Assembly: GCA_964291285.2 (NCBI GenBank)
Contig: OZ219787.1
Coordinates: forward strand, 1,440,001 to 1,504,000
DNA length: 64,000 nucleotides
Source of the DNA: Alphaproteobacteria bacterium
GTDB taxonomy: Bacteria; Pseudomonadota; Alphaproteobacteria; Bin95
Direction of reading: 5' to 3'
The notes under the pieces are model-generated. The model was not told the origin of the DNA and ran no database searches. It saw only the letters and a list, made by a program, of their open reading frames with translations. Within the stretch, counting starts at the first letter, position 1; each line of letters starts with the position of its first letter. Below, piece after piece: positions 1 to 17,119 of the stretch. The position numbers and the translations under genes are program-made.

Positions 1-1
1 T

Positions 2-1063
2 GTGGACGATGACGGGTCCGTCGTCGGGCTGACGCGGGACCGTCTGGAGGAATGGGTGATGACTGCGTGCCGGGACAAGATCAGGCCGGGCATTATCCCG
101 TTCTTCGAGACAGTCAGGGAGGTGCGCCCCGGCGCTGACGTGGCGATCGTGCGGGCGCCACGCGGTGTCGATGTGCACAGCCAGTGGCACAACAACAGAA
201 ACGCCTATTTCATCCGGGTCGGTACGCAGAGCCGGGAGCCGACGCCCCAGGAATTGAGCCGGCTCTTCCAGCAGCGAGGCGCCTTCCGCGTCGACCTGCG
301 GCCGGTGCACGGGGCGGCTGTCGGCGATCTGGACCGTCGTCGGCTCGAAGAGTATTTCAGGTCGATCCGTCAACAGGATGTCCCCGCTGACGACGACGAA
401 ACGGGTTGGCGGACCTTGCTGGTCAACACGGAGATCATGGTCGAGGGCAGCGCGAGCCTTTCAGGCCTGCTGCTCTTCGGGACCGCGCCTAATCGCTTCC
501 TGCCGCAGGCGGGCATCGATGCAGCGGCGTTTCCCGGATTGGAAAAGGACTACGCGGCACTTGAGCGGAAAACGCTGCGCGGCCCGATGACCCCCCTCAT
601 GGACGGCAAGGGCAATCTTCTGGAAGCCGGCCTCGTCGAGCAGGCGCTGGCGTTCGTCGGGCGCAACACGCCGGTGGGCGGCGGCCTCAAGGACGGCGCG
701 CGCCGCGCGCAGCGCCCGGCCTATCCGGATGAAGCGGTGCGCGAAGCTGTCGTGAACGCCCTGATCCACCGGGACTATCTCCTGGCGAATACGGATATCG
801 AACTGGCAATATATCGAAACCGGCTGGAGATCGTCTCGCCCGGGAGGCTTCCCAACGGCATAACGACCGAACGCATGCGCGCCGGGACCAGAGCCGCCCG
901 AAACCAGCTGTTGAAGGACGTGATGCGGGACTATGGCTATCTTGAGCATATGGGGATGGGAGTGCCGAGAAAGATCGTTCGCGGCATGAAGCAGCACAAC
1001 GGAACGGAACCCGATCTCGTCGAGGACGGCGAGCGGTTCGTCGTACGCCTCTTCGCCCGATAA
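2..1063 (+). CDS. AlbA_2 (Schlafen-like) plus HATPase_c_4/RecG-C-like ATP-binding protein, 5'-partial
   Basis: Begins in the AlbA_2 'GVDDDG' motif; YFIRVG; 'AVREAVVNALIHRDY', 'RLEIVSPG', 'RN..L..V', 'MGMGV' motifs. Confidence 0.85.
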   Translation: MDDDGSVVGLTRDRLEEWVMTACRDKIRPGIIPFFETVREVRPGADVAIVRAPRGVDVHSQWHNNRNAYFIRVGTQSREPTPQELSRLFQQRGAFRVDLRPVHGAAVGDLDRRRLEEYFRSIRQQDVPADDDETGWRTLLVNTEIMVEGSASLSGLLLFGTAPNRFLPQAGIDAAAFPGLEKDYAALERKTLRGPMTPLMDGKGNLLEAGLVEQALAFVGRNTPVGGGLKDGARRAQRPAYPDEAVREAVVNALIHRDYLLANTDIELAIYRNRLEIVSPGRLPNGITTERMRAGTRAARNQLLKDVMRDYGYLEHMGMGVPRKIVRGMKQHNGTEPDLVEDGERFVVRLFAR

Positions 1064-1283
1064 TGGGCACCACGATTTCATTGATGCCTGGAGGCGGCGA
1101 TCGCGGATTCCATTCGGCTGGAGCAGGCGCAGTCCCCGCAAGCCGAGCCTGCATCGGCCGGGAAGCCCTCGGAATTGCGCGATCCGTGCACAACGATCTG
1201 ACGGCCCGCCGGGCGCGCCGCAACGGCTCCGACGCGCTCGCCCGGCGCCTCGACGCCGCCTGAACCCATCGAGCGAGGACGAC

Positions 1284-4200
1284 ATGGCGCAAAGACCACC
1301 CCGGACGCCCTGGCATGAGGTCGTGACGCTGCGCGAGGATGTGCGCACGGGCGCGCTCTCGCTGGCCGACTTTGCCGCCGACCTTCACGATGTAGCGATG
1401 CAGAAGGGCGCGCGGCCGGTCTATGAGGATCCGGGCCGGTTCTTTGCGCTGACCTATCCGACCTTCCCGTTGCGGGAACTCGCGCGCGACGTGGCGCTGC
1501 GCCTCGCCGGCAGGAACACCAAAGCGATCCGCCAGCTCGAACTTACCTATGGCGGAGGCAAGACCCATACGCTGGTGACGCTCTACCATTTGGCGCACGA
1601 TCCGCAGTCGTTGCCGACGCTCCCGGCAGTCGAGCAGTTCCGCTCCCATGTCGGTGCACCCCTGCCGGCGGCGCGTGTCGCGGCGCTCTGCTTCGACAAG
1701 CTCGATGTGGAAAAAGGCATGGAGGTGCGCGGCCCCGGCAGCGGGCTGCGCTGGCTCAAGCATCCCTGGAGCGTGCTGGCGTTTCAGCTGGCGGGCGAGG
1801 AGGGCCTGCGCGCGCTTCATCCCGACGGCGCGAACGAGGAGCGGGAAACGGCGCCTGCCGAGCCGCTGCTCGCCGAGCTGCTGTCGCGGCCGCAGGCAAG
1901 CGGGCTCGCCACCCTGGTGCTGATCGACGAAGTGCTGATGTATGCCCGCGAGAAGGCGGCGATGGAGGAGGGCTGGCATGCGCGGCTGACCGACTTCTTC
2001 CAGTATCTGTGCCAGGCGGCGGTCAGGGTGGACCGCTGCGCCCTCGTCGCCTCGCTGCTCGCCTCCGATCCCGCGAAGAGCGACGCGCTCGGCAAGCAGC
2101 TGACCCGGCAGATTTTCGACATTTTCAACCGGCAGCGCGAAGAGGGGATCCAGCCGGTGCAGAAGGAGGATGTGGCCGAAGTGCTGCGCCGGCGCTTCTT
2201 CGAGTCCGGTTCGATCGCCGATCCCGACGCCTTCCGCCCCCATGTCACGGCGGCAGTCGCCAATATCGCCGGGGTCGACGAAACGGTCGGCAAGAACAGG
2301 GCAGGCGAGGAACAGCGTTTCCTCGACAGCTACCCCTTCCATCCAGGGCTGACCGATATTTTCTATGCCAAGTGGACCCAGCTGGACGGGTTCCAGCGTA
2401 CGCGCGGCATCCTGAGGACCTTCGCCATCGCGCTGCGCGACGCCGAGAAGTGGGACAGGGCGCCGCTGGTCGGCCCCAATGTCCTTTTGCCCGCACCCGG
2501 CGAAAACGCTCTCTCCGAGGCGGCGCGCGAGCTTGCCGGCACCGCCACGCGCGAGGTCACGGAGGGCGCCGGCAATGTGTGGAGCGCCGTGCTGGAGGGC
2601 GAGCTTGCGAAGGCGCGGGCCGTGCAGGACGATCACCCGGCGCTGAAGTTCCGCGAAATGGAGCAGGCGGTGTGCGCCGTGTTCCTGAGTTCGCAGCCTA
2701 TCGGCCAGAAGGCGCACACGCCGGAGTTGATGGCGCTTGTCGGCGCGGCAGGCCCGGACCGGATCGATGTCGAGAAGGGCCTGCGCCGCTGGACCGAACT
2801 CTCCTGGTTCCTCGACGAGGCGGAGTTCGCCGACGCCGCGACGCTGCCCCGGGCGTGGCGTCTCGGCAACAGGCCCAACCTCAGGCAGATGCATGACGAC
2901 GCCTGCGCCAACCGGGTCGCGGCGGAGCAGGTGGAACAGGCGCTGCTGGAGGAGGTGCGGCGGGCGAAGAGCCTCACCCAGGGTGCGGCGGCGGCAGGCG
3001 CAAGGGTGCACATGCTGCCGGAGCGGCCGCGCGACATCGGCGACGACGGAGAGTTCCATTTCGCCGTCCTGGGGCCGGACGCGGTTTCCGATTCGGGCCG
3101 GCCGAGCGCGCAAGCGCGGCGCTTCATCGACGAGACGACGGGGCCGGACCGGCCGCGAATCCGACGCAACGCCGTGGTTCTGGCGGTACCTTCGCGCGAC
3201 GGCCTGGACGCCGCCCGGGCAAGCATCCGCGAATATCTCGGCTGGGAGGAGGTGCGCCGCCAGCTCGACGGCCAGGGCGGCGATCCGGTACGTGAAGGGA
3301 TGCTCGCCGCCTCGACGGAGAAAGCGCGCAAGCGCATCCCCGGTGCGATCCGCCAAGCCTGGGCCATGGTCGTCGCCGTCAACGAGCACAACGACATCCA
3401 GGCGTTCAAGACAACCATCGGCGCGGAACCGCTGTTTGCGGTCGTCAAGGCGGACCGGCGGGCGCGCATCCAGGAGACCGCGATCAGCGCCGAAGCGATG
3501 CTGCCCGGCGGCCCCTACGATCTCTGGCGCGCCGACGAGGTATCGCGCCGCGTGAAGGATATTGCCGGCGCCTTCGCGGAGAATCCGAAACTGCCGAAGA
3601 TGCTCCGGCGAAGGGATATCCTCGGCACGATCGACCGGGGTGTGCGCGACGGCGTCTTCGTTGCGTCGCTGGTCAGGCCCGACGGATCGGTCAGAACCTG
3701 GTGGCGGACGCCGGTCGACGAGCAGGCCCGGTCGGATCCGGCATTGGAGCTGTTCCTGCCCGACAGGGCCACGCTGTCGGAACTCGACCCGCAGGCGCTG
3801 GCACCGGATGTGCTGCCGGAACTGTGGACTGGCGCCTCCGTCGCGGTGGCGGACCTCGCCGCCTACTTCGCCGGCGGGCGGATGGTAACTGTGCAGCGAG
3901 AGGGCTATGCGGAACCGGTCGGTATTCCGGCCTGTCCCCGCGCCGCCGTCGAAGCAGCCGTCGCGGAAGCCGTCCGCCAGGGTGTGCTGTGGCTTGTGAA
4001 CGGCCCCGCAAGCTTCCAGGACGAAACGCTGCCGCCCGGCATTCTGTCGGACGCCGCCGAACTGCGCGCGCCTTTGCCGCCGCTATCGGTGAACCGGTTG
4101 ACGAAGGATTCGGCGCCAGAGGCATGGAAAGACGGACAGGCCAGCGCCTTGGCCCTTTCCGCTGCGCTCTCGGTGCAGGCCGGCGCACCGCTGCCCTGGT

Positions 4201-10270: not shown

Positions 10271-12067
10271 TCAGCCGCTGGGCGCGATCATAATCGCGTC
10301 GAGGGCCTCTTGGGCGCGGGCGGCGTAGTGCCGGTTGGCCTCGGGTACATATCGGAAGCGTCCGTCGCAGCGCACGATAGCGATGGCCGCGTTGCTCAAG
10401 CAGGCCAGATTTCCGGGCAGGTGGCGCACATATGCCCGGCAACGGTCTTCGTCATAGGTGAAGTCACGCACATAGTGCACACGGTTCTCGATGTGCCAGT
10501 GGTTGCGCACCAGATCGAGAAGCTCCTTGGGGCCGGCTCGCTCTGCGCCAAGCGACGTCAGGCTCCAGGTGACCTCGATGCTGCGCTTGCCGGTTTTGAG
10601 CATCTTGCGCTCGCGTTCCATGCGCATTGCCTGGCGGCGCCCGTGAAGGTGGGCGTAGCCGTCCCACTCGGCAGCGCAGAGGTCGACGACGGCGCAGCGT
10701 CGGCGCTCAATGCGACCATGGCCCTTGTCGACGGTTTCGTGCCAGGGCGCATCGCTGAAGTCGATCGCCTTGAGGTCTTCGAGGATGGTCTGCTGGTTGC
10801 CCTTCACCGCGCTGACCACGTAGTCGGCACGGCGTTCGAGCAGGCAACGCGCGGTCTCGTGCTGGGCGTGCATCGCATCGATGGTGACGATCCGGCCTGT
10901 GAGGTCGAGACCGCTGGAAAGTTCGCGCACGGCCGGGATTTCGTTGCTTTTGGAGCTGACTTCGACCTGCCCGAGGACCACGCCGGTGTCATGCGCCACC
11001 GCAGCGACCATCCTCCTGCGCCGGTCTTCGGTCTGCTTCGAGGCACCGCGCAAATCCTTTCCGTCCATGGCCACAGGCGCGTGCGCACTGCTGTGCTGTC
11101 CGGCCCACTGGCCGATGGCATTGTCCAGGGTCTGTGGCGGCAGGGCGGCGAGGATGTTGTGGAAGGTGGTGACCGCCGGCGGCGTGTAGCACTGCCTGGA
11201 TGGGCTCCAGAAGGCGCCCACCGCCTTGAGTTGCTTCTGGGAGAGCAGGGCGGCGAACTGGGCGAAGGCGTTCACACCCCGGTATCCGGCAAGCCGGGCG
11301 GCAACGGCCAGCGTCAGAATGGTGGTGAGCGCATAGCGCTTGCCCCGGGCATGGCGGTATTCGGGCACCTCGCCCAAACACTCGAACAGGCTGCGCAGCC
11401 GGGGCGCCGCCATCGGCTCGGTGTGCTGCTCAGCGTTCCAGTCTGCCGGTATCTCGGGATGGCTCAGCGCCTCGGGGGCGCCGTGTGTCAGTTCGAACAC
11501 GAAGACCTCCTTGGGCTGGCCGTGGTGACGCCAGCGCGCCACCCCTCCGGGCTCGCGGGCAAAGCCGCGCGTCAGACCCAGAGAGCGCCAGTTGGCCGCG
11601 CGGTAGCAGGTGCCGGCGAAGCGCGAGACGTCCACAAACGTCTCCGCCACAACAGCCGGATAGCCATGCGCCGCCCGCAGGTCCTGCGACAGCCGCCGCA
11701 CGCTCAGCCCCAGCACCCGCGAGGCAAGGTTGGGAACCCGCTCAGGCGTCAGGATGACAAAGCGCGAGTTGTTGGCAACCAGATGCAGGCGACGGAACTG
11801 CTGCTCCGCCGACCACCCGATCCAGCGGTCCCGCGCTCCCACCTTGAACGCTCCAGGCTGCCAGCCAACCAGGGCAAGCCAGGCCTCGCCATGAACCGCG
11901 ACATGGCGCAGACCCTTGCCGATGATGCCGTGGAACCGCAGATAGTGGTGCGCCGCTACCAAATCGTCCCAGCGCCGGTGCTCCCGTGCCCCCCAGGTCG
12001 GGCGCACCGTGACCGCGCGAAGATCAACCCAAACACCCGCAAACAGAAACCTCGCCATGACCGGCAC
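10271..12067 (-). CDS. ISAs1 transposase with N-terminal DUF4338 domain
   Basis: N-terminal 'HHYL','RDRWIGW','NNSRF','NLASR','ETFVD','GTCYRAANW'; C-terminal 'MDGK','KSNEI','IDAMH','VKGNQ','HGRIERR','HWHIEN..H..RD..EDR'. Confidence 0.9.
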   Translation of the reverse strand: MPVMARFLFAGVWVDLRAVTVRPTWGAREHRRWDDLVAAHHYLRFHGIIGKGLRHVAVHGEAWLALVGWQPGAFKVGARDRWIGWSAEQQFRRLHLVANNSRFVILTPERVPNLASRVLGLSVRRLSQDLRAAHGYPAVVAETFVDVSRFAGTCYRAANWRSLGLTRGFAREPGGVARWRHHGQPKEVFVFELTHGAPEALSHPEIPADWNAEQHTEPMAAPRLRSLFECLGEVPEYRHARGKRYALTTILTLAVAARLAGYRGVNAFAQFAALLSQKQLKAVGAFWSPSRQCYTPPAVTTFHNILAALPPQTLDNAIGQWAGQHSSAHAPVAMDGKDLRGASKQTEDRRRRMVAAVAHDTGVVLGQVEVSSKSNEIPAVRELSSGLDLTGRIVTIDAMHAQHETARCLLERRADYVVSAVKGNQQTILEDLKAIDFSDAPWHETVDKGHGRIERRRCAVVDLCAAEWDGYAHLHGRRQAMRMERERKMLKTGKRSIEVTWSLTSLGAERAGPKELLDLVRNHWHIENRVHYVRDFTYDEDRCRAYVRHLPGNLACLSNAAIAIVRCDGRFRYVPEANRHYAARAQEALDAIMIAPSG

Positions 12068-12552
12068 ACTGACATATCAAGAAAAAAATGGCCACCCCGG
12101 ACCCCACCTCAACATGGCCCACAGGCAGACAATTAATTCGCCCTGCTCGTCTCGACCATATGGTTGACAGGTGTAGGTGACGGTCGTAAAAGGCGCTTAT
12201 TTGCTGGCGTTGCGCGTTTTTGCGGGGCGTGATGATCGCAGTGATTGTGGTGCGGCGGTGTTTGTGACGGGGGCCTGGGACGGAAGGAGGGCGTAGCCCG
12301 ACTGGAGTCGCCGGCCCCCGTCGCGTTGATATTTTCGCCTGCCGAGGGGAGGGTGTCCTGGCGCTGTCGGCGGGGGTCGCCGGGCTGCGCGAGGGGGTAG
12401 ACTGGGGCTGCTGAGAACGATGCGGCGCCGGCCCCGTTTGCTAGGTGGCAACGACCGGCGCCGCACCCCCCGAGCCATGCAAGGCACGGCCCGTATGCGC
12501 AGTATCGTAGGCGTTCGGGCGTGGGTCCACCCCGTTCTCATCGGTCTTTGCG

Positions 12553-12987
12553 ATGAGGAACGCCGCCCGCCTGTTCACCTGCGCTTCGTGCCATCGCCAG
12601 GTTGTGCTGTGCCGGCGGTGCGACCACGGCAACATCTACTGCTCGCGTCCGTGCAGCGGCCGGGCGCGGCGGCGCTCGCTGCGCCTTGCCGGGCGTCGCT
12701 ACCAGAACAGCCGGCGGGGCCGTCACAAGCATGCCGAACGCCAGCGGCGCTACCGCGAGCGCCGTCGCGTCCGTGCGCCTGAGGAGGGGCGCCGTGCGCA
12801 GAAAGTGACGCATCACCCTTTGACCCGTTCACCGCGCCGTCCTGTTGTGGCGGGCATGCCGGCGGGGCGCTCGGGAAGGAGGCCCTTCGGACCCGACCGT
12901 CCCGCCGGAGTGTTCCGCTGCGATCACTGCGGGCGGTTCTGCGCCCGGGCGGTCTATCCGGGCCTGCGCCCGGCGCGAAGGGAGTGA
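12553..12987 (+). CDS. Small basic Cys-rich (zinc-ribbon-like) protein upstream of istA
   Basis: CASC..CRRC..CSRPC and C-terminal CDHC; ends 1 bp before the istA ATG. Confidence 0.7.
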   Translation: MRNAARLFTCASCHRQVVLCRRCDHGNIYCSRPCSGRARRRSLRLAGRRYQNSRRGRHKHAERQRRYRERRRVRAPEEGRRAQKVTHHPLTRSPRRPVVAGMPAGRSGRRPFGPDRPAGVFRCDHCGRFCARAVYPGLRPARRE

Positions 12988-12988
12988 G

Positions 12989-14494
12989 ATGGCGATCGAC
13001 CAGCAGACCCGGGCCGAGATCCTGCGGCTGTATTTTGCCGAGAAGTGGCGGATCGGCACGATCGCGCGCCAGCTCGGCGTCCACCACGGCACGGTCGAGC
13101 GCGCGGTGGCGGCCGCCGGGGCGCCCACGCCTGAGAAGCGGCGCAGATCTTCGATGATCGATCCGTTCCTGCCCTTCGTCCGCCAGACCCTGGCGGTCTG
13201 GCCGAAGTTGCCCTCCAGCCGGCTCTACCGGATGGCGGTCGAGCGCGGTTACCGGGGGTGCGAGAGCCACTTCCGGCGCATGATCGCGCCCGAGCGTCCG
13301 CGGCCGGTGGCCGAGGCCTATCTGCGCCTCAAGGCCCTGCCCGGCGAGCAGGCCCAGGTCGACTGGGCCCACTTCGGCAAGGTGAGGATCGGGCGTGCGG
13401 AGCGCCCGCTGATGGCCTTCGTGATGGTGCTCGGCCACTCGCGCCGCCTCTTCCTGCGCTTCTACCTCAACGCCGGGATGGACAACTTCCTGCGCGGCCA
13501 TGTCGAGGCCTTCGAGGCTTGGCAGGGCGTGCCCCGCGAGCTCTGGTACGACAATCTGAAGAGCGTCGTGCTGGAGCGGCGCGGCGACGCCATCCGCTTC
13601 AATCCCCGGCTTCTCGACTTCGCAGGCGCCTACCGCTTCCTGCCGAAGCCGGTCGCGGTCGCCCGAGGCAACGAGAAGGGCCGCGTCGAGCGGGCCATAC
13701 GCTATGTGCGCGACAGCTTCTTCGCCGCCCGCGCCTGGCGTGACCTCGACGATCTCAACGCCCAGGCCCGGGAGTGGTGCGAGGGCGTCGCCGCCGACCG
13801 CCCCTGGCCGGACGACCGCTCCCTCACCGTGAGCGAGGCCTTCGAGCGCGAGCGCGGCTCCCTGATGGCGCTGCCCGACGACCGTCCCCCCGTCGACGAG
13901 AGGGTCGAGGTCAGGATCGCCAAGACCCCCTATGCCAGGTTCGACCTCAATGACTACAGCGTCCCGCATACCCATGTCCGGCGCACCCTCACCGTGGCCG
14001 CGACGCTGGAAGAGGTGCGCATCCTCGACGGCATGGAGGTCATCGCCCGCCATCCGCGCAGCTTCGACAAGGCGGCCCGCATCGAGAACCCCGAACACAT
14101 TGAGGAGCTGGTCAGGCGCAAGCGTCACGCCCGCAGCCTGCGCGGGCAGAGCCGGCTGCTCCAGGCCGCGCCCAACAGCGAGCGCCTGATCGCCGAGGCC
14201 GCCCCCCGCGGCGCTTATATCGGCGCCACCGTCGCCGCCCTGCTGCGCCTGCTCGACCAATACGGCGCCGCCGAGCTCGAAGCCGCCATCGACGAGGCCC
14301 TCGAACGCGGCGTCCCCCATCCCAATGCCGTGCGCCTCAGCCTCACACGGCGGCGCGAACTGCAGGACAGGCCGCCGCCGATCCCCATCGACCTGCCCAG
14401 GGACCCGCGCGTGCGCGACATCGCCGTGCGCGATCACGATCTCGGCGGATACGACGGGCTGGCCGGCTACCATGAAAAGGACAGCGAAGAATGA
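12989..14494 (+). CDS. istA: IS21 transposase IstA
   Basis: N-terminal HTH, 'PGEQAQVDW', 'WYDNLK', 'EKGRVERAI'; ATG at 12989 after GGAG. Confidence 0.93.
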   Translation: MAIDQQTRAEILRLYFAEKWRIGTIARQLGVHHGTVERAVAAAGAPTPEKRRRSSMIDPFLPFVRQTLAVWPKLPSSRLYRMAVERGYRGCESHFRRMIAPERPRPVAEAYLRLKALPGEQAQVDWAHFGKVRIGRAERPLMAFVMVLGHSRRLFLRFYLNAGMDNFLRGHVEAFEAWQGVPRELWYDNLKSVVLERRGDAIRFNPRLLDFAGAYRFLPKPVAVARGNEKGRVERAIRYVRDSFFAARAWRDLDDLNAQAREWCEGVAADRPWPDDRSLTVSEAFERERGSLMALPDDRPPVDERVEVRIAKTPYARFDLNDYSVPHTHVRRTLTVAATLEEVRILDGMEVIARHPRSFDKAARIENPEHIEELVRRKRHARSLRGQSRLLQAAPNSERLIAEAAPRGAYIGATVAALLRLLDQYGAAELEAAIDEALERGVPHPNAVRLSLTRRRELQDRPPPIPIDLPRDPRVRDIAVRDHDLGGYDGLAGYHEKDSEE

Positions 14495-15285
14495 CCGACA
14501 CCCTCATGAACCGCGCCCGCGCGCTGGGCCTGCACGGCCTCCTCGCCCATTGGGGCGAAGTCGCGGAGCGCGACTGGCTCGCCTCCCTGATCGCGTGGGA
14601 AGAAGATGAGAAGCGCGCCCGAAGCCTCAAACGCCGCCTCGCCGACGCCCGCCTCGGACAGTTCAAGCCGCTCGCAGACTTCGACTGGGACTGGCCAAGG
14701 CGCTGCGACCGCATGGCCGTCGAGGACCTCATGACCCTCGACTTCCTCAAGGAGGCCGCAAACCTCGTACTGGTCGGACCCAACGGCGTCGGAAAGTCCA
14801 CCATCGCCGCCAATATCGCCCACCGCGCCGTCCTCGAAGGCCACATCGTGCGCTTCGCAACCGCCGCCAGCCTGCTCGGCGAACTCGCCGCCATCGACTC
14901 CGACACCCTGCTCCAGCGCAGGCTGCGCTTCTACGCCCGACAGCACCTGCTGGTCATCGACGAAGTCGGATATCTCTCCTACTCCAACCGCCACGCCGAC
15001 CTGCTGTTCAACATCGTCTCAAGCCGCAGCCAGCAGAACTCAACCATAATCACCACGAACCGCCCCTTCGCCGAGTGGAGCGAGGCCTTCCCAAACGCCG
15101 CCTGCCTGGTCGCCCTCGTCGACCGGCTCGTCCACAACGCCGAGATCGTCGCCATCGACGGCGACTCCTGGCGCCGCAAGGAAGCCGAGGAACGTCAGAA
15201 GCAGCGCAGCGCCGAACGCCGCCGCCGGCGCGGACCGAAAGCCGGGCAAAGCACTGGAAAGGCGAACCCGGTCCCGTCGCCATAG
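14491..15285 (+). CDS. istB: IS21 helper ATPase IstB
   Basis: Walker A GPNGVGKS, 'IDEVGY', 'TTN', 'DRLVH'; ATGA overlap with istA. Confidence 0.93.
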   Translation: MTDTLMNRARALGLHGLLAHWGEVAERDWLASLIAWEEDEKRARSLKRRLADARLGQFKPLADFDWDWPRRCDRMAVEDLMTLDFLKEAANLVLVGPNGVGKSTIAANIAHRAVLEGHIVRFATAASLLGELAAIDSDTLLQRRLRFYARQHLLVIDEVGYLSYSNRHADLLFNIVSSRSQQNSTIITTNRPFAEWSEAFPNAACLVALVDRLVHNAEIVAIDGDSWRRKEAEERQKQRSAERRRRRGPKAGQSTGKANPVPSP

Positions 15286-15287
15286 CC

Positions 15288-16160
15288 ATGCATCCCTCCC
15301 GCCCCCGCGAGCGGCGGGTGCGGGCCGAGAGCCTGCGGGGCTATCCCCTCGAACCCGTCGCCCGAGCCCTCGGCTACCGCAGCGATCCCGACAATGCCGT
15401 GCGCTGGAGACGGCCAGGATCGGTCCTCTCCATCAACCGCTTCATGTTCTACGACCATCTGCGCGCAGAGGAGGGAGCCGGGGCTATCGAACTGGCGGTC
15501 CATGCGCTCGGATGCACCCCGCCGGACGCCATCGACTTCCTCGCCGAACTGTCCGACCTCTCAATGCCCCCAGGCGGCCGCCGGCAGGCGCCGGCCAAGG
15601 ACCCCCGCTGGCCCAACCTCCGGCGATACCTCGTCGAGCGGCGCGGCCTCGCGGACGCGCTCGTCATCCTGTGCCGCGACCTCGGCCTGGTCCATGCCGA
15701 CCCTCACGGCAACCCCGTGTTCGTCCGCCGAAACGCCGCCGGCGAGGCTACCGGCATCGAAACCGTCACCGCTGACCGCAAAACGACCGCGGGCGGCGGC
15801 TTCTGGATGTCCTGGGAGACCGAATGGCCACACGCCGTCATCCTGGCCGGCAACGCCCTCGACGCACTCTCCATCCTCTCCCTCCACCTCGGCCCGGTAA
15901 AACGCACCGAATGCGCCACCGTCTCCACCGGCGCCGTCGCCACCAAAGTCCCCAAATGGATCGAGGCATGGAACCCGCGCCTCATCTTCTGTGCATACGA
16001 CGCCACCACAAACGGCGATCACGCCGCAAGGCGCCTCGCCCGCAACGACACCAGAATCGTCCGGCTGCGACCCGCACTCGACAACCGGGACTGGAACGAC
16101 ATGCTCATCCGCGACCGAGCCGGCGAACCAATCGAAACCGATGACCAACAGATCAACTGA
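15288..16160 (+). CDS. DUF3991/Toprim-like (primase-derived) protein with degenerate catalytic motifs
   Basis: 'GAGAIELAVH', 'RRYLVERRGL', 'GNALDALS', 'CAYDATTNGD', 'DWNDML'; starts 2 bp after the istB stop. Confidence 0.7.
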   Translation: MHPSRPRERRVRAESLRGYPLEPVARALGYRSDPDNAVRWRRPGSVLSINRFMFYDHLRAEEGAGAIELAVHALGCTPPDAIDFLAELSDLSMPPGGRRQAPAKDPRWPNLRRYLVERRGLADALVILCRDLGLVHADPHGNPVFVRRNAAGEATGIETVTADRKTTAGGGFWMSWETEWPHAVILAGNALDALSILSLHLGPVKRTECATVSTGAVATKVPKWIEAWNPRLIFCAYDATTNGDHAARRLARNDTRIVRLRPALDNRDWNDMLIRDRAGEPIETDDQQIN

Positions 16161-16238
16161 AAAACCGCAACCGGCCGAAAAATGTCAGCGAATAGGCGCG
16201 CTCTGTAACCGTCGCTAACAGGCAGGCAGATTACGACG

Positions 16239-16790
16239 TCAAGCGTCGCCGGCCGGTCCGCCTGCGCCCCTGTAGAACAGATCGGGCTGCGGCGGGGTTG
16301 TCCGACCGGTTCCGTCATCGGACCCTGACCCCGCCGGCCTGACCGGTGCTTTCGACACTTCCGCCGTTTCCTCTGCCGTCTCCGGCAGAACGGCTGCCGC
16401 GACTATTGCAGCGCGCTTTTCGCCGAGCACCCGGCGAAGCAGTTCGAGTGCCTGCTCGCGTCGACCGTCCCGATCCATCGCCTTGAACCGCGCTTCCAGC
16501 AGGGCGCGCATGCCGTCCGCGAGATTCGACGGCGCTTCGCCGCCGCAACGCAGATCGCGGGCAGCCGCCGTCATGGTGCGGGAGAGGTCGCGCTGCTCGC
16601 CTGCATCGAGGACCAGCGGCCGGGCAGCCACCGTCTCCGGAAACGGGTCCACGGTGAGCGCACATTCGCAGAACCAGGGTGAGAACTGCTTTCCGCGCTC
16701 GGCCGCCCAGGCGCCGATTTGCTCCCGCTCTTCCCTGGTCAGGGAGACCGTACGGTTCATTCCGGGCTTTCGGTTGCGAGGCTTCGTCAC
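16239..16790 (-). CDS. Hypothetical protein with N-terminal RHH/MobC-like motif
   Basis: 'RTVSLTREEREQIGAWAAERGKQFSPWF'; GTGA overlap with the upstream gene. Confidence 0.55.
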   Translation of the reverse strand: MTKPRNRKPGMNRTVSLTREEREQIGAWAAERGKQFSPWFCECALTVDPFPETVAARPLVLDAGEQRDLSRTMTAAARDLRCGGEAPSNLADGMRALLEARFKAMDRDGRREQALELLRRVLGEKRAAIVAAAVLPETAEETAEVSKAPVRPAGSGSDDGTGRTTPPQPDLFYRGAGGPAGDA

Positions 16791-17119
16791 GAGAGGCCTT
16801 CCTCTTCGGCAAGAAGCAGCAGCCGGACCGCTTCCCCGACCGTGACAGTCGCCGTTCCGCCTCCCGGAGCGCGAAAGACGAACCGACCGGACCGCGAGGC
16901 ATACAGGGCGTCCTCGCAGAGGCGACTCTGCCTGTCCTCCGTAAGCACAAGCGGATGCCCGGACGGCTTCGGGGCCTCGCCCGCGCCTTCGCCCGCCGCC
17001 CGCCGGCAACACAGATACCCCAGGCGCGAGATCGGCATCTTCCACTTCCTGGCCCGCCTGCGTATCCGTTCCCAGACCTCCGGCGAGCAGTAGACGCAAT
17101 AACGCTTCGCGAGCTTCAT
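16787..17119 (-). CDS. Small RHH-like protein
   Basis: 'CVYCSPEVWERIRRRARKWKMPISRL'; coupled to both neighbours. Confidence 0.5.
   Translation of the reverse strand: MKLAKRYCVYCSPEVWERIRRRARKWKMPISRLGYLCCRRAAGEGAGEAPKPSGHPLVLTEDRQSRLCEDALYASRSGRFVFRAPGGGTATVTVGEAVRLLLLAEEEGLS

Follow-up and report, generated by a model that had tools for sequence, protein, structure and literature searches.

The question raised by this locus is whether an insertion sequence (IS) of the IS21 family can hold two genes within its inverted repeats besides those for the transposase and its helper ATPase, and what the last of them, a primase-like gene, does for the element. The locus occupies positions 12172-16220 of the window, which is the whole 64,000-nucleotide stretch of contig OZ219787.1 analyzed here, from the genome of an Alphaproteobacteria bacterium (6.1 Mb in 5 contigs, 68% G+C, extremely repeat-rich). 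A first-pass annotation of the window had described inverted repeats enclosing four tightly coupled genes, with successive junctions of a 1-bp gap, a 4-bp overlap and a 2-bp gap, and about 20 bp between the last gene and the right repeat. The comparison of genomic copies described below bore out the enclosure of the four genes, and the gene coordinates reproduced each of the spacings. The features are as follows.

12172-16220: IS21-type element, the whole mobile unit, 4,049 bp, with ends TGTAGG...CTAACA
12172-12211, plus strand: left terminal inverted repeat (IRL), starting TGTAGG; left boundary identical in all 22 genomic copies
12553-12987, plus strand: orf1, 144 amino acids, basic zinc-ribbon protein
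12989-14494, plus strand: istA, 501 amino acids, IS21-family DDE transposase
14491-15285, plus strand: istB, 264 amino acids, AAA+ helper ATPase
15288-16160, plus strand: orf4, 290 amino acids, predicted DnaG/T7-gp4-like primase fold in which the Toprim site is degenerate (AGNALD, YDAT), with an acidic tail specific to the clade (ETDDxxI)
16181-16220, minus strand: right terminal inverted repeat (IRR), ending CTAACA; right boundary identical in all 22 genomic copies

The boundaries of the element were established from its copies in the source genome because all of them stop at the same positions. A blastn search of that genome with the 4,049 bp returned 18 full-length copies with 99.68-100% identity, every one corresponding exactly to query positions 1-4049, and additionally four copies split by other insertions, as well as fragments. 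Read directly from the sequence, the IRL and the reverse complement of the IRR are alike at 27 of 40 positions, with TG...CA ends that start TGT and finish ACA. These imperfect repeats of approximately 40 bp were absent from the 25 longest of the 61 inverted pairs obtained in an automated repeat search. A single base pair lies between orf1 and istA, istA and istB overlap by 4 bp, istB and orf4 are 2 bp apart, and 20 bp separate the orf4 stop codon from the right repeat. Perfect 5-bp target duplications flank 14 of the 22 copies and a 7-bp duplication flanks one, lengths within the 4-8 bp range of IS21 elements. The copy in the window has no target duplication (flanks ACAGG and GGCAG). Four of the five contigs carry copies, in numbers that roughly track contig size. 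These results identify 12172-16220 as one copy of a recently active IS21-family insertion sequence with four co-oriented, packed genes inside the mobile unit. Two copies in opposite orientation on contig 4 (G000:C4:400813-406562 and G000:C4:645215-649263) have reciprocally exchanged flanking 5-mers, which indicates an inversion of approximately 240 kb by recombination between them.

The transposition genes are of the expected kind. IstA scored 244.4 bits against the NCBIfam model transpos_IS21 (cut-off 160) and matched Pfam Mu-transpos_C_2 with an E value of 2e-24, and its matches to rve and HTH_23 were both under the Pfam cut-offs. IstB scored 208.1 bits against IS21_help_AAA (cut-off 200) and matched Pfam IstB_IS21 at 9e-55. 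By these profile matches istA and istB are assigned as the canonical IS21 transposase and AAA+ helper. The element has in common with canonical IS21 and IS5376 that it passes the IS21 equivalog models, that its TG...CA repeats are imperfect, that it generates a 5-bp duplication and that istA and istB overlap by 4 bp, but it differs in a length of 4.05 kb and in two more conserved genes inside the repeats. By its transposase, adjacent helper, ends and duplications it is an IS21 element, but not one of two-gene organization. The available part of PMC11208146 states that IS21 encodes two essential proteins, and the available parts of that paper and PMC10293859 present IS21 as a two-protein system, the current structural model for the licensing of a DDE transposase by an AAA+ ATPase. 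Full-text literature searches returned no paper on an IS21 element with a primase, Toprim or zinc-ribbon gene, or on a transposon-encoded protein resembling the acidic tip of SSB, the protein that binds single-stranded DNA; unpublished examples may be registered in ISfinder or TnCentral.

The four-gene unit is found in other genomes. With orf4 as the query, matches were obtained in 9 of 16 other genomes of the same genus, in none of 20 genomes from two sister genera and in none of 24 other sampled families. A scan of one genome per species detected 64 loci in 18 assemblies labeled Alphaproteobacteria, Defluviicoccus, Thalassobaculaceae, Pseudomonadales, Dehalococcoidia and Gemmatimonadota, labels to be read with the caution that short high-coverage contigs may be mis-binned. 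The order orf1-istA-istB-orf4 is uninterrupted in 52 of the 64 loci and also in 5 same-genus genomes. The remaining 12 loci are cut by a contig end or altered by internal deletion, interruption or rearrangement, and one of them (L074) is a lone orf4 remnant. Identity to the window proteins among relatives is 55-78% for orf4, 63-90% for orf1, 75-89% for IstA and 86-97% for IstB. Two remnants were encountered in long contigs: a 442-kb contig labeled Dehalococcoidia (L093) holds a degraded remnant comprised of an istB fragment and a frameshifted orf4, and the single orf4 fragment of L074 lies in a contig of 5.3 Mb. Such remnants indicate that the family also decays in place, and it may cross phyla.

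Multi-copy sets in four other assemblies were used to define the ends of the element independently, as the points at which the copies cease to be alike. The elements so delimited are approximately 4.09, 4.09, 4.24 and 4.28 kb, start with TGT, finish with AACA and have orf4 inside in all cases. Copies ending right after istB, an outcome raised in the first-pass annotation, were not seen in the clade, and the ends and target duplications include orf4 in these four genomes. Sublineages of the clade (L079-L098 versus the window and L039-L071) differ in the length of the target duplication: the source genome and G010 have 5 bp, G007 has 5-6 bp, and a further two assemblies have 7 bp. The lineage reaches 13-22 copies per genome, and independent multiplication of the four-gene unit has occurred in five genomes or more. 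A quick maximum-likelihood analysis of IstA, with the tree rooted by an outgroup on a very long branch and including some "three-gene" rows that are truncated contigs, placed the 15 four-gene representatives in one clade with a Shimodaira-Hasegawa-like approximate likelihood ratio test (SH-aLRT) value of 100.

The orf4 reading frames are intact, at 280-306 amino acids, in 15 of 15 divergent representatives. Pairwise ratios of nonsynonymous to synonymous substitution (omega) were obtained by the Nei-Gojobori (NG86) method over 105 pairs, with medians of 0.54 for orf4, 0.41 for orf1, 0.34 for istA and 0.25 for istB, values that serve for gene-to-gene comparison and not as absolutes in view of the constraint on synonymous sites in G+C-rich genomes. 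In five phylogenetically separate pairs omega for orf4 was 0.46-0.57, with the bootstrap upper limit below 1 in all five, and omega for orf1 was 0.28-0.49. By part, omega was 0.48-0.51 in the three folded domains of orf4, rose to 1.43 in the linker and was 0.33 over the final ten residues. The substitution pattern, with omega near 0.5, indicates that orf4 is under purifying selection and is not decaying cargo, an answer to the concern in the first-pass annotation that the gene might be unconserved.

The primase/DUF3991-like character that the first-pass annotation had given the fourth gene was confirmed by profile and by predicted structure. The protein scored 26.3 bits against Pfam DUF3991, above the cut-off of 24.5, and 19.3 bits against Toprim_2, under the cut-off of 22.1. 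An AlphaFold model built from 31 homologues had a predicted local distance difference test score (pLDDT) of 84 and a predicted template modeling score (pTM) of 0.82, and every significant Foldseek match to the model was a DnaG-type primase, the T7 gp4 primase or Twinkle. The orf4 profile gave a single match against PDB sequences, at chance level (E 0.22). The model predicts a compact fold of the DnaG/T7-gp4 type in which a zinc-binding-domain-like N-terminus precedes an RNA-polymerase/Toprim domain. In a comparison with annotated plasmids, alignments spanning more than 90% of orf4 at 25-30% identity were obtained with domains of MobV relaxase fusions and with proteins annotated "DUF3991 and toprim", and the likely source lineage is these plasmid DUF3991-Toprim/MobV relaxase-primase fusions. 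The plasmid proteins, with which orf4 also shares DUF3991 above the cut-off, belong to a mobilization or conjugation context, whereas orf4 is inside an IS and has a degenerate site; close intact-motif relatives keep E and DxD.

The Toprim catalytic site is degenerate across the clade. Among 84 alignable homologues, the position of the Toprim Glu is occupied by K in 31, G in 20, A in 19, E in 8, D in 3, N in 2 and T in 1, the window protein having Gly, and at the DxD position 65 sequences have DAT, 7 have DAD and the remainder have triplets of other, non-DxD kinds. Both E and DAD are kept only in seven homologues (P0089, P0091, P0092 and the genes in L028, L030, L031 and L032), which stand furthest from orf4, with 36-44% identity; P0067 is an eighth sequence with E, but it has GAT at the DxD position. 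The surroundings of the lost residues are conserved (A-L-D-A-L; F-C-A-Y-D-A-T; G-D), as are the acidic residues D192, D238 and D244 and a DWND stretch, and the orf4 alignment (A1) has 32 invariant and approximately 60 near-invariant columns. The N-terminal domain in the same alignment contains no CxxH...CxxC (CHC2) pattern, the only near-invariant candidates there being H57, H72 and C76. The acidic C-terminal tail, E/Q-T/I-D-D-R-x-I/L-x, is a conserved feature of the IS clade that the distant homologues lack. The readings GNALD and YDAT reported for the window protein in the first-pass annotation were correct, and on the aligned sequences the Glu and the second Asp of DxD have been lost throughout the four-gene clade. 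A Glu position that varies freely, combined with Thr fixed where the second Asp would be, is what one would expect if the fold were retained and catalysis given up. With DnaG and T7 gp4, orf4 has in common the two-domain fold of its predicted model, but it differs in showing no CHC2 pattern in its alignment, in lacking the Toprim Glu, the second DxD Asp and any helicase or helicase-binding domain, and in its length of only 290 amino acids. It is not filed here as a primase because the fold is present but the catalytic residues are lost. Metazoan Twinkle likewise keeps a gp4-type primase domain that no longer primes.

The first gene has a wider distribution than the fourth. The orf1 product contains the pattern CxxC-x6-CxxC-x6-C-x3-C near the N-terminus and CxxC near the C-terminus, and in its alignment (A2) eight cysteines are invariant, at positions 10, 13, 20, 23, 30, 34, 123 and 126, and a pair of basic helices is strongly conserved. 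No Pfam or NCBIfam family and no PADLOC defence family matched it. The AlphaFold 2 model had a pLDDT of 72; a Foldseek search of PDB with this model gave nothing below E 5, the top match being the YacG zinc finger, and a structure search of the Atlas gave unnamed clusters only. A profile search retrieved 3,818 representative clusters at E ≤ 0.001 and 2,529 at E ≤ 1e-10, with no Pfam family in common among them. In 80 metagenome loci fetched with the orf1 profile the match lies upstream of istA on the same strand wherever the DNA reaches, with L126 as the exception, and the IstA proteins are mostly 50-67% identical to that of the window. Only one of these loci, L101, has the primase-like gene (IstA 76%), which is absent from 11 orf1-family loci that extend at least 1 kb past istB. 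Homologues of orf1 were also found in RefSeq plasmids of Burkholderia sp. PAMC 28687 (L179:4501-4890) and Methylotuvimicrobium alcaliphilum 20Z (L180:4501-4860), where they had been missed or miscalled: the annotation calls only a short opposite-strand coding sequence in the former and only a short partial coding sequence in the latter. Judged by these homologues, orf1 is an old accessory inherited from a large and much wider IS21 subgroup. A frameshift fusion of orf1 to IstA was considered, the istA frame being open upstream in the window, but rejected on finding 56-439 nt between the orf1 match and istA in the sister elements.

The sister elements have a different gene in the slot after istB. 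Both RefSeq plasmids annotate a small open reading frame (ORF) overlapping the istB stop codon (L179:7194-7412 and L180:7260-7451). With the two plasmid products as queries, a homologue was found in this slot in 22 of 33 eligible metagenome loci, defined as those with a complete istB and at least 220 nt downstream, and inspection by eye revealed more diverged versions in some of the other eligible loci. The small gene encodes 57-69 amino acids where its start can be read, with a start 4 bp ahead of the istB stop codon in several loci (L102-L178, for example L121:3118-3321); for the sister elements as a group the size is given as 62-78 amino acids. No credible Pfam family was obtained for it. 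The C-terminal consensus of the small protein is FDDDIxF, and the principal SSB of the host genome ends DLDDDIPF; the source genome has 39 matches to the SSB family. The acidic tip of SSB is a docking site for at least 17 partner proteins according to the available part of PMC7145534. Neither the 15 four-gene representatives nor the 64 genome loci yielded the small gene. The gene orders indicate that orf4 took over the slot held in sister elements by an SSB-tip-like small gene. With the small gene missing from the four-gene elements and orf4 in the same slot, one accessory gene linked to single-stranded DNA and primosome biology has been exchanged for another of related ancestry.

Homologues of orf4 were also located beside other transposition modules. 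In L028:16-3406 (G004 contig 682), 26-nt inverted repeats that are 92% complementary with TG...CA ends surround istA, istB and a reverse-oriented DUF3991-Toprim gene in which E and DxD are intact; the IstA of this locus is 30% identical to that of the window. In L030 (G002 contig 305) and L032 (G014 contig 30) an rve/Mu-transposase-C transposase and an AAA_22 ATPase are followed on the same strand by an intact-motif homologue, and in L031 (G002 contig 42) and L032 an AAA_25 (RecA/DnaB-like) gene is directly upstream of the primase-like gene. The contigs of L030, L031 and L032 extend over only approximately 4.3 kb; the arrangement may represent a transposon that brings primase and helicase genes of its own. 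The occurrences are suggestive of an orf4 family repeatedly partnered with transposition modules and do not amount to a census. On the broader and doubtful proposal given below, the apparently intact primases, and in some cases helicase-like genes, of these same-genus Mu-type transposons would point to a family that brings its own primosome parts.

The explanation favored here joins a descriptive part to a proposed role. The descriptive part, comprised of an active four-gene IS21 element, a selected primase-fold orf4 with a degenerate site, the replacement of an SSB-tip-like gene and an old zinc-ribbon accessory, is held with high confidence. For the role, it is proposed tentatively, at somewhat under even odds, that orf4 is a non-catalytic adaptor of transposition that links the IstA/IstB complex to single-stranded DNA or to the host primosome. 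The protein would bind single-stranded or gapped DNA, or a component of the primosome, at the IstA/IstB strand-transfer product and would hand this product to host replication restart or gap repair, aiding disassembly; in the sister elements the same job would be done by the SSB-tip mimic. Taken whole, descriptive part and adaptor role together, the explanation is assigned a probability of roughly 0.45. A broader proposal, which is doubtful, is that a large IS21 subgroup encodes its own link from the strand-transfer complex to host replication or repair. In most members the link would be a zinc-ribbon regulator together with a small protein whose SSB-tip mimic recruits SSB partners such as PriA, and in the present clade an exapted, dead gp4/DnaG-type primase would have assumed this task.

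Several results weigh against the favored explanation. Neither an experiment nor a predicted interface connects orf4 with IstA or IstB, with DNA or with any protein of the host. The idea of a hand-off to replication was drawn from the location of orf4, in the slot that holds the SSB-tip mimic in sister elements, and from its primase ancestry, and neither argument is direct; the orf4 tail (ETDDxxI, ending D, G, S or N) is itself no copy of the SSB tip. The family is rare, as the orf4 profile matched only 2 of 401 genomes in a class-wide sample, the source genome among them. The contexts with other transposition modules are weak, coming from four short contigs (L028, L030, L031 and L032) of three fragmentary genomes in one genus, and L028 was seen as a single copy with no target duplication. 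Finally, orf4 evolves about twice as fast (dN, the nonsynonymous divergence, 0.28 compared with 0.09 for istB), which also fits dispensable cargo that is weakly selected.

The last point leads to the alternative that survives best, although it is itself rather unlikely, namely that orf4 is cargo of the kind carried by transporter ISs and gives a benefit unrelated to transposition chemistry, such as interference with plasmid or phage replication or with host priming. Transporter ISs, described in the available part of PMC9330008 as IS derivatives carrying passenger genes, are an accepted class, and they resemble the present element in having additional genes that lie within the inverted repeats and move with the IS. 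An omega above those of istA and istB and the late gain of orf4 in one clade, whose sister elements move without it, are what this alternative expects. The additional genes of the present element differ from passengers, however, in being packed in an operon with the transposition genes and conserved across the IS lineage, orf1 across thousands of protein clusters. Further, orf4 starts 2 bp after istB, exactly in the slot of another conserved small gene, and its family adjoins three different DDE/AAA+ modules; PADLOC returned no defence family for orf4, which is weak evidence in the same direction.

A second alternative was raised in the first-pass annotation by analogy with Tn7-like elements and is the less probable of these two: orf4 would be a target selector. 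In this scenario the dead primase would recognize a DNA structure, for example the template of the lagging strand or conjugative DNA entering the cell, and direct IstB and IstA there. The position of orf4 after an AAA+ gene is that of the selectors of Tn7-like elements, its ancestry is in plasmid mobilization primases, and the niche is open, IS21 being, according to the available part of PMC10293859, without a reported target selector. Elements of the Tn7/Tn5053 type resemble this one in combining a DDE transposase of the Mu type with an AAA+ regulator and in encoding more proteins downstream (there TniQ/TnsD, TnsE), but no TniQ/TnsD or TnsE family was detected for orf1 or orf4 in Pfam at E ≤ 0.01, and neither site nor orientation specificity was apparent. 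Empty sites could be reconstructed for 14 copies and have no consensus other than the G+C richness of the genome. Taken in the orientation of the element, the 100-kb flank is G-rich on the top strand for 9 of the 22 copies in the source genome, and in four other genomes the corresponding figure with 10-kb flanks is 24 of 42 (p 0.44), so that no orientation preference was detected, in a test weakened by the noisy, weak and irregular skew of these rearranged genomes; the cumulative GC skew of the five contigs is too irregular for placing origins. The near-proportional spread of copies over four of five contigs likewise counts against selection of particular sites. In favor of the analogy, 24 of 44 flanks of 1 kb have another copy in the genome, a slight excess over random windows (223 of 600; odds ratio 2.0, p 0.025), the criterion for random 1-kb windows being another copy of at least 200 bp in the genome and the paired flanks not being independent. 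This weak excess is explained as easily by tolerated insertions in mobile or junk DNA. The insertion sites thus lend no support to the analogy with Tn7-like selectors.

Still less probable is that orf4 is a working primase which uses non-canonical metal ligands and supports self-primed replicative transposition. The continued conservation of D192, D238, D244 and DWND would suit such an enzyme, as would the intact appearance of the relatives in L030-L032, of which those in L031 and L032 adjoin an AAA_25 gene in the manner of a split T7-gp4 primase-helicase. Against it, the Glu position varies freely, the second Asp is Thr in 65 of 84 homologues, Toprim_2 is under the Pfam cut-off and the zinc-binding-domain-like part has no CHC2 ligand pattern; single substitutions at these residues of DnaG abolish priming. 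That orf4 is captured, decaying DNA fits the loss of catalytic residues and its standing as the fastest evolving of the four genes, but it is contradicted by the intact frames in 15 of 15 divergent representatives, by omega below 1 in all five pairs, by the 32 invariant and approximately 60 near-invariant columns and by multiplication of the unit in at least five genomes, and is hardly credible.

The 381-nt leader between the left end and orf1 contains two candidate features.

12259-12270, plus strand: repeat occurrence of the terminal 12-mer TGTTTGTGACGG, a candidate for an internal IstA site (L2); the pattern is loose, with 25 matches in the window compared with 12 expected
12262-12325, plus strand: GC-rich long hairpin from folding prediction, followed by a U-rich stretch

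At the right end the sole candidate for the repeated terminal 12-mer carries one mismatch, again with the loose pattern. The predicted fold of 12240-12345 has a free energy of -58.4 kcal/mol and a z score of -4.6, and none of 200 shuffled sequences was equally stable. No Rfam family matched 12000-16400, the hairpin included, and a promoter and terminator scan gave 0 promoter-like sites and terminator-like sites at chance level. The zinc-ribbon protein encoded by orf1 probably binds nucleic acid at the ends or in this leader and would thereby regulate istA; small zinc-finger regulators of insertion sequences offer a comparison for such a role. The loop of the leader hairpin (approximately 53 nt) recurs with approximately 85% identity at eight other places in the genome (for example G000:C5:226645). 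These recurrences are in the leader of another multi-copy IS with an IstB-like gene of 34% identity, in which the outer stem differs in sequence yet pairs.

The neighbors of the element in the window are both on the minus strand. To the left, 10271-12067 encodes a 598-amino acid ORF with a DruA-like N-terminal region (Pfam DruA 2e-19) followed by DDE_Tnp_1_assoc and DDE_Tnp_1, and the 1-kb region of this neighbor has 12 repeats in the genome. To the right, 16239-17099 encodes a 286-amino acid ORF with no Pfam family.

The results provide a function-bearing context for two protein families that have no Pfam model, and flag genes that were missed or miscalled by RefSeq. A multi-copy lineage that always carries a dead primase, together with a larger zinc-ribbon sister group and its SSB-tip-like small gene, would extend the two-protein picture of IS21. 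Overall, the findings suggest that steps after strand transfer, such as disassembly, gap repair or replication, and regulation, are partly encoded by the element itself.

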